Positions 29,685 through 61,057 of a stretch of DNA of 64,000 nucleotides are shown here, piece after piece. A program made the translations under genes and the position numbers. The notes below the pieces were generated by a model that was given only the letters and a program-made list of their open reading frames with translations, ran no database searches and was not told the origin of the DNA. How positions within the stretch are numbered: position 1 is the first letter of the stretch; the number at the start of each line of letters is the position of its first letter. The DNA comes from Escherichia phage LHE83. The stretch is taken from the sequence record OQ561750, one strand, 5' to 3'.

Positions 29685-29712
29685 TTTACAACCTCGAGAA
29701 TCGTGTTATAAT
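29684..29712 (+). promoter_or_regulatory. early promoter (GTTTAC, 17 bp, TGtTATAAT) with flanking inverted repeat CGAGAA/TTCTCG
   Basis: Hexamers and spacing. Confidence 0.7.
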
Positions 29713-29761: not shown

Positions 29762-30211
29762 ATGAATACTTATATGACTCGCCGTAACGTTCTGTCTGCT
29801 GGTGCTACTACTGTTGCTTATGTTAAGAACGGTGAATACCAAAATGGTAAACCTTCTAAAGAAATCTCTGCTCAGCCAGGCTTCTACTTCTTTGTTAAAG
29901 GTGGTGCTGATTCTCGTGTCGTAGCGGCTCGTTTTTATGTCGGTAATCAACGTTCGGCCCAAGGGCTCGACGGTATCGTGGCTAACATTCGTAAGAAACG
30001 TTCTCAATCAGCTCGCACTATGGCAGTGAACGGTGTTGTGTATGAAGTTCTTTATGTACCGGCTTCTAAGATGAAACCCCTGACTACAGGTTTTGGTAAG
30101 GGTCAAATTGCAATGGCTTTCACTCGTAATCATAGTTCCGACCTCCAGACACTGGAAGAAATGAACCGTATGTTGGCTGATAACTTTAAATTCATCCTGC
30201 AGGCTTACTAA
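29762..30211 (+). CDS. ndd: nucleoid disruption protein Ndd-like
   Basis: Size/position and C-terminus ...[17 protein letters not shown] resembling T4 Ndd by recollection. Confidence 0.6.
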
Positions 30212-30288
30212 TGAGTAATTTCCATAACGAGCATGTGATGCAGTTCTATCGTAACAATCTTAAAACTAAAGGCGTCTTCGGACGCTAA
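30211..30288 (+). CDS. stp: Stp peptide (25 aa)
   Basis: [25 protein letters not shown] matches T4 Stp by recollection; TAATG overlap with ndd. Confidence 0.8.
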
Positions 30289-30298
30289 TGAGGAAAAT

Positions 30299-30460
30299 AT
30301 GGTTATCCTAGTTTTTATTGAACTTATTATGGCTATAGTCTGTTCAGTTTGCTTCTTTTTAGGTGTGTGGGCCCCTCGTCCGATATTCTTAAGTTTTCTG
30401 CTTATTGGTTGGGTTCTTTCTACTTTTGTCGGTTTACTTAAGACGATTAAAAATGATTAA
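30299..30460 (+). CDS. small membrane protein (53 aa)
   Basis: SD AGGA; two hydrophobic segments; ac-region of T4 map. Confidence 0.5.
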   Translation: MVILVFIELIMAIVCSVCFFLGVWAPRPIFLSFLLIGWVLSTFVGLLKTIKND

Positions 30461-56912: not shown

Positions 56913-56917
56913 GGAAT

Positions 56918-56931
56918 GGGGCTTCGGCCCC
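56918..56931 (+). other. GGGGC-UUCG-GCCCC hairpin between the SD (AAGGA) and start codon of denA
   Basis: Perfect stem/tetraloop 9 nt upstream of ATG at 56940. Confidence 0.6.
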
Positions 56932-56939
56932 TTATTGCT

Positions 56940-57353
56940 ATGAAAGAAATCGCAGACGAATTTAGCTTTATCAAGTACGTCACCCTAGAACTCCAAGATG
57001 ACGCCAGCATTGCTCCACTCACAGTACCAAATAAACAAAATGTCATATATGCTATAGCGGTTGATGATATACTAGTCTACATCGGGAAGACTAAAAATCT
57101 TCGTAAGCGCATCAACTACTACCGAACCGCTATTAATCGTAAGGACCAAACGTCAGATTCGACCAAGTCCATTCTGATTCATGAAGCATTAATGGCAGGT
57201 AAAAAGGTAGAGTTCTATGCACGGCAGTGCTTTAATCTGTCGATGACTAACGAACTTGGAACTATGTCAGTTGAGACCATGTCTCTTGAAGAGCCAATGT
57301 TCATAAAGAAATTTAATCCACCTTGGAATACCCAACATAGGATAAAGCAATGA
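56940..57353 (+). CDS. denA: endonuclease II (GIY-YIG family)
   Basis: MKEIADEFSFIKY...VIYAIAVDDILVYIGKTKNLRKRINYYR matches T4 EndoII. Confidence 0.85.
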   Translation: MKEIADEFSFIKYVTLELQDDASIAPLTVPNKQNVIYAIAVDDILVYIGKTKNLRKRINYYRTAINRKDQTSDSTKSILIHEALMAGKKVEFYARQCFNLSMTNELGTMSVETMSLEEPMFIKKFNPPWNTQHRIKQ

Positions 57354-58498
57354 TTGAATTATATGATAACTTGATGGCCCTGGTTAAAAACTCGACTAAA
57401 TCTAAGTTCTTCTTTAAAGACTTTCAGAGTGCGCTAGGAGTCAACTATCGCATCTTTAGTTATAACTATGCATCGTACAGTGATTGGTTGGAAGACGGCG
57501 CACTAGAGTGCCGAGGCATTATGTTTGAAATGGACGAGAACGGTCCAGTACGTATTGCTGCTCGTCCTATGCAAAAGTTCTTTAACCTTGACGAAAACCC
57601 TCTGACCATCGGTCTAGATTTGTCACCAGAAAATATTGACCTCGTAATGGCTAAGGAAGATGGTTCTCTGATTTCTACATTCATGGACCGACAGTATCTT
57701 TCTGTTAAATCTAAAGGCTCTATCCATTCATCAATGGTGCATGATTCTTTACGGTTCCTTCGTCTCCCTGAGAACGAGGCCTTTGCCGCACGTCTAGAAG
57801 AAATCACCAAAGCTGGGTATACCTGCAACCTTGAATATGTAGCACCTACCAACCGTATCGTTCTGGCTTACCAAGAAACAAACCTCATCCTGTTGAACGT
57901 TCGTAATAATGAAACAGGTGAATATATTCCGTATGCTGAATTGTTTAAAGATGGTGCCCTGCGTAAGCATTTGGTTGAAAGCTATGACCTCGCTGAAGGT
58001 GATTTCGTAGAAAACATCCGTAAGAAGGAAGGCATTGAAGGTTTCATCTTTGTACTGAAAGATGGTACGTTCTTTAAACTCAAAACCGCCTGGTACAGTG
58101 CACTGCATCATACCAAAGATTCCATTAACAACAACGAACGTTTGTTTGAAGTTGTAGTGGCTGGTGGAACTGATGACCTTCGTGGTCTGTTCAGTACAGA
58201 TTCCTTTGCTATCGAGAAAATCGATGCCTTTGAACGCATCCATTTAGATTACCTAGAACAATCATTAGCCTTGTTAGAAGCAGCTTACTCTCAACTCAAA
58301 GGTCGCGACCGTAAAGACTATGCCGTTACTGGACAGCTAATCCTTAAGGACTTCCCAGGGTTGTTCTCTATTCTTATGCAGGCGTACGTAGGTGGTATTA
58401 ATTACGATACGGTTGTAGACCAGATTAACTCTGTGTTCTTGAAAAATCATAAGGCCCAAATCCCTGAAAAATATTTGAAAGAAATTGTGGTAGAGTAG
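57350..58498 (+). CDS. rnlA: RNA ligase 1
   Basis: FFFKDF...YRIFSYNYASYSDW...ECRGIMFE matches T4 RnlA (gene 63). Confidence 0.85.
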   Translation: MIELYDNLMALVKNSTKSKFFFKDFQSALGVNYRIFSYNYASYSDWLEDGALECRGIMFEMDENGPVRIAARPMQKFFNLDENPLTIGLDLSPENIDLVMAKEDGSLISTFMDRQYLSVKSKGSIHSSMVHDSLRFLRLPENEAFAARLEEITKAGYTCNLEYVAPTNRIVLAYQETNLILLNVRNNETGEYIPYAELFKDGALRKHLVESYDLAEGDFVENIRKKEGIEGFIFVLKDGTFFKLKTAWYSALHHTKDSINNNERLFEVVVAGGTDDLRGLFSTDSFAIEKIDAFERIHLDYLEQSLALLEAAYSQLKGRDRKDYAVTGQLILKDFPGLFSILMQAYVGGINYDTVVDQINSVFLKNHKAQIPEKYLKEIVVE

Positions 58499-58556: not shown

Positions 58557-59057
58557 ATGAATATGCAAATGATTACTAACGAAATGGTTGTTAAGGCTTT
58601 TGGTGACTCTACTGACGGTATCCAAGTTTTTAAAGGTTCTCGTGCAGTAGGTTACCTGACCGATCTTCGTGTTACTTTAGCCAAAAATGCTAAAAAGAAA
58701 ATCAAGCAAAAAGAATACTCTACCCGTTATGCTGAAGAAAAGCGTGAAGCCATGCCTGAAGCTGTCAACTCTATGGTTGAGTTTCTCCAAAACAACCTTT
58801 CCAAGTACGATGCCGAGGTATTCATTAACATCAGCCAGCCTAATGTTAAAATCTCAGGCATCACGTTCTATTTGATTTGCGACCCATTAAGCGACAAGTT
58901 TAATCGCCTTGGCATTTCAAGTCCTTACCATACCGCTGAAGAATTGTGTTTTATGTTCGAAACGTACAAAATTCAGTGTGAAAATCCTAAAACAGTTCTT
59001 ATTAATTCCCTGTCACGTGATGACATCATCGAGATTATTACCAAATGTCTAAATTAA
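58557..59057 (+). CDS. alc: Alc-like protein (transcription terminator on cytosine-DNA)
   Basis: 166 aa, position downstream of rnlA as in T4. Confidence 0.6.
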   Translation: MNMQMITNEMVVKAFGDSTDGIQVFKGSRAVGYLTDLRVTLAKNAKKKIKQKEYSTRYAEEKREAMPEAVNSMVEFLQNNLSKYDAEVFINISQPNVKISGITFYLICDPLSDKFNRLGISSPYHTAEELCFMFETYKIQCENPKTVLINSLSRDDIIEIITKCLN

Positions 59058-59398
59058 GTATTTACCTTTTAGCTGGAGCCATTGCAGTAGGTGCTTACGG
59101 TTTTATTTCGTATCAATCAAGTCGTATTGATACCCTTACTGAAGAACTGAAAACTACCCAGCAAACGGCAAAACAGAACGCTGAAGCTGTAGAGGACCTT
59201 CGTGGTCAATACTCTGATATTGAATTCCGTACTACTGAAATGAATGCCCTAATGGATAAAATTAAGGTAGAAAATGAAAAGCTCCGTAAAGATTCGAAGA
59301 AGGCGCACGTGGTGGCAAGTAAGCCAGGACTGGTCGAAAAACAAATCAACAAGTCCTTCGATTCCTTTACAGAAGACTTCAGGAGCATTACAGAATGA
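59045..59398 (+). CDS. i-spanin (Rz-like inner membrane spanin)
   Basis: N-terminal TM helix + coiled-coil; followed by lipoprotein gene with overlapping start (T4 pseT.3/pseT.2 arrangement). Confidence 0.65.
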   Translation: MSKLSIYLLAGAIAVGAYGFISYQSSRIDTLTEELKTTQQTAKQNAEAVEDLRGQYSDIEFRTTEMNALMDKIKVENEKLRKDSKKAHVVASKPGLVEKQINKSFDSFTEDFRSITE

Positions 59399-59685
59399 TT
59401 AAATTATCTGTAGTAGTATTATCTATTGGCTTGTTAGTTGGATGTGCTCAGGAGCTTCCTGTAGTGCCTAAGCAACAACTACATCCTTCATGGCCACAAC
59501 CTATTGCCGAACATAATGTTAAATGGCAGGTTAAGGTAATCGATGGTAAAGCTTGGGTTGGGATGCCGTTTGAAGACTCCCAAGAACATCGTATTTGGTT
59601 GAATGACGTAAAAAGATATGTACAAGACCAGAAATCTATGTTATGTTATTATCGTTCCGGTCTAAAAGAGGAGAAGTGCAAATGA
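59395..59685 (+). CDS. o-spanin (Rz1-like outer membrane lipoprotein)
   Basis: Lipobox LVGC; Pro-rich N-terminal region; ATGA-coupled to i-spanin. Confidence 0.65.
   Translation: MIKLSVVVLSIGLLVGCAQELPVVPKQQLHPSWPQPIAEHNVKWQVKVIDGKAWVGMPFEDSQEHRIWLNDVKRYVQDQKSMLCYYRSGLKEEKCK

Positions 59686-59852: not shown

Positions 59853-61056
<1,204 letters not shown>

Positions 61057-61057
<1 letters not shown>

Follow-up and report, generated by a model that had tools for sequence, protein, structure and literature searches.

Among the closest described counterparts of the locus analysed here is stp of phage T4 (AAD42660.1), which encodes a peptide of 26 aa ending in GRQ. In T4 the gene overlaps the stop codon of ndd, and downstream of it lie ac, 52.1 and 52. 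Stp inhibits the type IC restriction enzyme EcoprrI, so that the anticodon nuclease PrrC is unleashed, and the phage enzymes Pnk and Rnl1 heal and seal the cut tRNA-Lys (PMC3014915; PMC12707154). The peptide acts on type IC but not on type IA enzymes, and its 18 N-proximal residues constitute the functional part (PMC3014915, for the latter summarising Penner et al. 1995); its inhibitory mechanism was still described as unknown in a 2025 EcoSal review (PMC12707154). The same logic, in which a backup abortive-infection effector senses an anti-restriction factor, is shared with Ocr of phage T7 and ArdA, in combination with PARIS, Ronin and EcoR22I (bioRxiv 10.1101/2023.04.06.535777). Unlike the large acidic DNA mimics Ocr and ArdA, Stp has a size of just 25-26 aa, and its sequence (R14, K18, K20 and R25 against E7) implies a net charge of about +3.

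We analysed a stretch of 64,000 nt from Escherichia phage LHE83 (OQ561750), hereafter called the window. The first-pass annotation had described a 25-codon ORF overlapping the ndd stop and had recognised its product as T4 Stp, and the ORF was found exactly there (Table 1): it starts with ATG (30211-30213), contains 25 sense codons and closes with TAA (30286-30288), and the final A of the ndd stop is at the same time the first base of the stp ATG (TAATG). On the minus strand opposite the gene no overlapping ORF of at least 20 codons is present. A tblastn comparison with T4, in which stp is annotated (AF158101.6), gave 25 identical residues out of 25 (E=2e-9). Pfam family PF08133, the anticodon nuclease activator family, was matched over profile positions 1-25 of 26 with 72.1 bits (E=2e-20), the cut-off being 25, and PHROG 6763 with E=1.6e-20. 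The recognition of this sub-threshold ORF was accurate and the alignment revealed no mismatch, with the one restriction that the peptide covers residues 1-25 of a T4 peptide that has 26; the accompanying statement that T4 Stp inhibits EcoprrI and thereby triggers PrrC is also in agreement with the literature (PMC3014915; PMC12707154). With AGG at -11 to -9 stp has a weak Shine-Dalgarno sequence, and its expression would therefore depend on coupling to ndd; most likely translation is coupled to the ndd stop via the TAATG junction.

Table 1. Coordinates of the features discussed in the text. Coordinates outside the window are preceded by our own labels (L numbers).
Feature	Source	Coordinates	Strand	Remarks
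Early-type sigma-70 promoter, predicted	window	29685-29712	+	TTTACA, 16 nt spacer, TATAAT, with TG; ~50 nt upstream of ndd
ndd	window	29762-30211	+	nucleoid disruption protein, 149 aa; Pfam PF06591 Phage_T4_Ndd, E=1.1e-68; annotated as ndd in public records
stp	window	30211-30288	+	25-aa Stp peptide; by analogy with T4, predicted inhibitor of type IC restriction and activator of the PrrC anticodon nuclease
C(UUCG)G tetraloop hairpin	window	30271-30286	+	GGCGUC-UUCG-GACGCU; stp codons 21-25 and first base of the stop codon
ac-slot membrane ORF	window	30299-30460		53 aa, hydrophobic; PHROG 9347 (unknown function)
denA	window	56916-57353		PHROG 1111
rnlA (T4 gene 63)	window	57350-58498	+	RNA ligase 1, 'sealing'; 382 aa; start overlaps denA stop
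pseT.3 and pseT.2 homologues	window	59045-59398, 59395-59685		between alc and pseT
pseT	window	60149-61057	+	bifunctional polynucleotide 5'-kinase/3'-phosphatase, 'healing'; 302 aa from first ATG
Stp-family ORF	Kagunavirus ZCEC5	L002 822-914		PF08133
Stp-family ORF	Kagunavirus PDP21P8	L005 41066-41143		PF08133
Stp-family ORF	Drexlerviridae ZL19	L006 2986-3078		PF08133; annotated 'hypothetical protein'
Stp-family ORF	Drexlerviridae XT34	L007 1975-2052		PF08133
Stp-family ORF	Skatevirus seszw	L008 32723-32806		PF08133
HAD-phosphatase gene	Drexlerviridae XT34	L007 4425-5042		annotated 'polynucleotide kinase'
HAD-phosphatase gene	Drexlerviridae ZL19	L006 1998-2537
ndd-ac gap	Mosigvirus AV110	L022 18454-18505		~52 nt, filled by a terminator-like hairpin
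Pnk and Rnl1 genes	Mosigvirus AV110	L024 3652-4548, 6504-7625

In the ndd-stp-52 stretch (951 bp) Escherichia phages WG01 and PSD2002 share 99.5% identity with the window, and JS10 and IME08 share 94-97%. The JS10 record is assigned to the genus Dhakavirus (Tevenvirinae), of which JS10 is the type species, and the window phage is a T4-like Dhakavirus. As in T4, ndd is followed in turn by stp, a small membrane ORF, 52.1 and 52, with the same overlap of stp with the ndd stop and the same placement upstream of 52.1 and 52. One difference from the T4 locus lies directly upstream of ndd, where a consensus scan revealed an early-type promoter with 11 of 12 consensus matches plus an extended -10 TG. 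This sequence is kept in JS10 but absent at the same place in T4, where ndd.1 directly adjoins ndd. Transcription of ndd, stp and the small genes that follow probably starts from this promoter, and compared to T4 the expression of ndd and stp may begin earlier in Dhakavirus. A further difference is found downstream of stp. The hydrophobic ORF in the T4 ac slot shows no BLASTP similarity to T4 Ac (27% identity in a forced alignment) and shares 81% identity with its counterpart in Gaprivervirus DCP80, an ordinary member of its genus whose 141-kb record contains two Stp matches. It looks like a small mosaic replacement, since stp and 52.1 on either side of it share 100% and 96% identity with their T4 equivalents; the name ac was rejected for want of similarity to T4 Ac in favour of ac-slot membrane ORF.

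A tblastn search of 50,697 phage records with Stp yielded matches in 798, and in 438 of these the best match was at least 99% identical. The gene is named in 4 of 60 evenly sampled matching records and in 3 of the 40 best DNA matches. It is shorter than the length limits of gene callers and consequently missing from most records, so comparisons based on annotated CDS can mis-score its presence, and the recognition of the ORF in the first-pass annotation was of practical use for this reason. As a side observation, in OL964735.1 and OQ223305.1 the feature at the ndd position is named 'naphthalene 1,2-dioxygenase', which looks like an annotation error, perhaps an expansion of the gene symbol ndd.

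The repair genes pseT and rnlA were confirmed at the coordinates given by the first-pass annotation through matches to PDB 1LTQ and 2C5U. The pseT product is 90% identical to T4 Pnk (PDB 1LTQ, E=5.7e-190; Pfam AAA_33 and HAD_PNKP). K15, S16, D35, R38 and R126 of the N-terminal P-loop kinase are conserved, as are the DxDxT motif (D165, D167) and R176, R213, D254, D277 and D278 of the C-terminal HAD phosphatase, a list based on the mutational literature on T4 Pnk. Compared to T4 Pnk (PseT) the two-domain architecture, all 12 catalytic residues and the neighbourhood are the same; the only meaningful difference is that the window gene has one more in-frame ATG, placed a codon further upstream. At the start ATGATGA (60149-60154) this first ATG, which overlaps the stop of pseT.1, lengthens the product by one Met, while the second ATG at 60152 corresponds to the T4 start. 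Divergence is much higher in the rnlA product, which comprises 382 aa compared to 374 aa in T4 Rnl1 (gp63/RnlA; PDB 2C5U, 5TT6) and is about 50% identical to it (PDB 2C5U, E=5.2e-113; Pfam RNA_lig_T4_1 and T4_Rnl1_C, PF09511 and PF20819, E=5e-46), far from the values for Stp (100%), 52.1 (96%) and Pnk (90%). All of R54, K75, F77, K99, D101, G102, K119, E159, E227, G228, K240 and K242 are nevertheless conserved, a list likewise based on mutational work on T4 Rnl1. The adenylylation lysine K99 lies in KEDG (motif I), nucleotidyltransferase motifs III-V are intact and the Rnl1-specific C-terminal domain is recognised. Both enzymes are full length, with 24 of 24 active-site residues checked conserved. 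The specificity of the window Rnl1 for repair of tRNA-Lys is assumed from its conserved catalytic residues and recognisable C-terminal domain. The toxin gene rnlA of E. coli (RNase LS) is a different gene that shares its name with the phage gene.

The genes follow the T-even order denA, rnlA, alc, pseT.3, pseT.2, pseT.1 and pseT. Identity to T4 is very uneven along the window, with about 50% for Rnl1, 90% for Pnk at a distance of 1.6 kb and 100% for Stp, and the Rnl1 of Mosigvirus AV110 is 48% identical to that of the window; Rnl1 appears to be either a rapidly evolving protein or one subject to exchange between T4-like genera. The AV110 counterparts of the pseT.3 and pseT.2 homologues are annotated as Rz and Rz1 spanins, and the second of the pair contains a lipoprotein-like LLVGC motif. 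A phage tRNA-Lys was considered as an additional counter-arm, and ARAGORN detected no tRNA genes in the 64,000-nt window.

Taken together, we regard it as very probable that stp of this T4-like Dhakavirus encodes an ndd-coupled 25-aa restriction inhibitor and PrrC trigger that operates with Pnk and Rnl1 as repair enzymes. Modelled on T4 genetics and biochemistry at every functional step, stp would be transcribed together with ndd from the early-type promoter, and coupling of translation at TAATG would provide the basic 25-residue peptide early in infection. Stp would then bind the type IC restriction complex, e.g. EcoprrI or EcoR124I, and block restriction. Where PrrC is bound in latent form to EcoprrI, this inhibition would unmask the nuclease, in a step expected to need GTP hydrolysis with dTTP as co-activator. 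PrrC would cleave tRNA-Lys 5' of the wobble base, and the cut tRNA-Lys would be healed by Pnk and then sealed by Rnl1. Inhibition of type IC enzymes and activation of PrrC are inferred because the functional region is 100% identical to T4 Stp. The system formed by stp, pseT and rnlA is already known from T4 and also present in T2 and JS10, and is a textbook case and not a discovery: nothing in it is new, as JS10 (EU863409.1) contains an identical 78-nt stp whose 25-aa product is already annotated (ACL78482.1) and agrees with the window peptide over its entire length.

It had been proposed that the window carries a complete countermeasure set against anticodon nuclease, with both the trigger and the repair arm retained. 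All three genes are present and their identification holds, and Pnk and Rnl1 are countermeasures; Stp is an anti-restriction factor and trigger, as the body of that annotation, in contrast to its title, correctly had it. The genes do not form a module, as stp lies 27-30 kb from pseT and rnlA at conserved T-even map positions and not in a cassette, and elsewhere they assort independently. In Mosigvirus AV110 the short gap between ndd and ac is occupied by a terminator-like hairpin, and tblastn with four Stp variants gave no match in the 112 kb examined, nor is there a stp at the ndd-ac junction. This agrees with a report that AV110 is without Stp (preprint 10.64898/2026.09.14.751387), and with so narrow a gap and no tblastn match an annotation artefact was rejected as the reason. 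AV110 nonetheless retains Pnk (75% identical) and Rnl1 (48%). Conversely, neither the Pnk kinase domain nor Rnl1 was found in five siphophage genomes with Stp-family ORFs (ZCEC5, PDP21P8, ZL19, XT34 and seszw). From AV110 and the siphophages it follows that trigger and repair arm assort independently among phages.

These observations are what one would expect if there were no functional set at all, Stp being kept for anti-restriction or another early role and Pnk and Rnl1 independently of it, e.g. to repair damage by further nucleases acting on tRNA or RNA, for the part that Pnk plays in the decay of RegB-cleaved mRNA or for tail-fibre attachment (gp63), so that their co-occurrence would simply reflect T-even gene order. 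Pnk does have additional roles, and dTTP activates PrrC without Stp (PMC3014915). We nevertheless consider this reading rather unlikely, as stp was defined in T4 as the locus that suppresses the restriction of pnk- and rli- mutants on prr+ hosts (PMC3014915), so that the three genes interact functionally when the host is prr+. The absence of a cassette refines the explanation of stp as a trigger accompanied by repair enzymes and does not exclude it.

Regarding the length of the peptide, an alignment of the DNA shows that T4 reads CGC-CAG-TGA where the window reads CGC-TAA-TGA. Gln26 is lost by the change of CAG to TAA, and the T4 stop TGA is kept in frame. A scan of IMG/VR for exact 3' junctions recovered the 25-aa form in 5 contigs and the 26-aa form in another 5. 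Among the contigs with the 25-aa form, four have a size of about 170-172 kb, which is in the range of Dhakavirus genomes, and the fifth comprises 155 kb. In an alignment of eight variants the invariant positions M1, H5, N6, M10, Q11, Y13, R14 and K18 all fall inside the N-terminal 18 residues, with five of those from H5 to K18 counted within residues 4-14. Residues 1-18 are the same in the window, T4 and T2, and the C-terminus of T2 Stp differs, ending in NFGILGFKK.

Could the 25-aa variant have an altered activity, for example by keeping the type IC block while triggering PrrC more weakly, and thus represent a variant that escapes the trigger function? The C-terminal part is indeed polymorphic among T4 relatives, as seen in T2, and removal of the 8 C-terminal codons lowers both activities, albeit just moderately (PMC3014915). 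Only a single residue is lost here, however, and the critical region is confined to residues 1-18, with most loss-of-function suppressors mapping to residues 4-14. Mostly the same residues also serve both activities (PMC3014915), which makes a splitting of the two functions through Gln26 improbable, and we give an altered activity very little weight. The loss of Gln26 is probably neutral for Stp, because the published deletion data show the C-terminus to be largely dispensable.

The 3' end of stp also contains a C(UUCG)G tetraloop hairpin, with a 6-bp stem in the minimum-free-energy RNA fold. Its sequence is the same in T4 and JS10 and missing from T2 and from all siphophage copies. Compared to T4, the window stp shows 2 synonymous and 0 nonsynonymous codon differences over the shared codons; the corresponding numbers are 10 and 2 for Kagunavirus PDP21P8 and 7 and 3 for ZCEC5. 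The siphophage copies retain the residues GVFG with codons that break the hairpin. These codon differences point to purifying selection on the Stp peptide and not on the RNA hairpin. The hairpin is best described as a lineage-specific overlay and not as the cause of ORF conservation, since the siphophages keep GVFG without it and the T2 C-terminus differs. A search with Rfam at gathering thresholds returned no match anywhere in the 64,000-nt window. Some public records annotate a 'terminator' at the stp hairpin; in our scan the site was terminator-like on the minus strand only.

An untranslated stp ORF with an incidental reading frame, in which conservation would concern an RNA element, either the CUUCGG hairpin or the 3' region of ndd, is hardly conceivable: it could draw on the stability of the hairpin inside codons 21-25, on the 'terminator' labels and on the lack of a stp annotation in most records, but it is opposed by siphophages that retain KGVFGK despite 7-10 synonymous changes abolishing the hairpin, by T2, which is without the hairpin yet exact in residues 1-18, by six divergent Stp variants that all score above the curated Pfam threshold, by the genetics and biochemistry that established T4 Stp (PMC3014915) and by the zero matches to Rfam families. 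An RNA element as the reason for stp conservation was rejected on the basis of the Rfam result, the lineage specificity of the hairpin and the codon analysis.

Stp-family ORFs are not restricted to T-even phages. When the 798 matching records were sampled at even spacing, genomes of 38-51 kb accounted for about 30%. The siphophage ORFs in Table 1 comprise 25-30 codons, score 30.8-65.8 bits, all of them above the PF08133 cut-off, and are tightly packed among small early genes. Where the records carry annotation these ORFs are unannotated, with the exception of ZL19. XT34 and ZL19 contain a HAD-phosphatase relative of the Pnk C-terminal domain only, which is 30-32% identical to residues 161-301 (XT34) and 197-301 (ZL19) of the window Pnk and is without the kinase half; in both genomes no more than about 2.5 kb separate the gene from the Stp-like ORF. 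The Stp peptides gave a weak second match to PHROG 28068 (E 1e-5 to 1e-3), a 37-position profile of unknown function, which may represent a more distant branch of the Stp family. A full-text search, for which most of the older literature was beyond reach and which is therefore weak evidence, found no paper on Stp homologues outside T-even phages.

By analogy with ArdA, a plasmid-borne Stp was also considered. The tblastn search against 72,556 plasmids gave one match, an unannotated Stp ORF in CP088689.1, deposited as the non-mobilizable 'plasmid' pC16EC0033-2 (44,086 bp) of an E. coli isolate from human blood. Genes for terminase and lysozyme are present in this record, and its identity to ZCEC5 amounts to 91.5% across 75% of an 8-kb query; the candidate was rejected because this sole match is a Kagunavirus genome deposited as a plasmid.

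For the window itself little is at stake, as it belongs to a T4-like phage carrying the classic Stp, Pnk and Rnl1 genes. From the distribution of the family we tentatively suggest, at somewhat less than an even chance, that Stp is a widespread stand-alone anti-type-IC peptide of small siphophages without T-even-type DNA modification (Kagunavirus, Drexlerviridae and Skatevirus). The occurrence of Stp without repair in siphophages and of repair without Stp in Mosigvirus could sharpen ideas on why PrrC exists and whom it targets. If the suggestion is true, PrrC would find its natural prey in these siphophages, and the combination of trigger and repair in T-even phages would be a derived, protected state.
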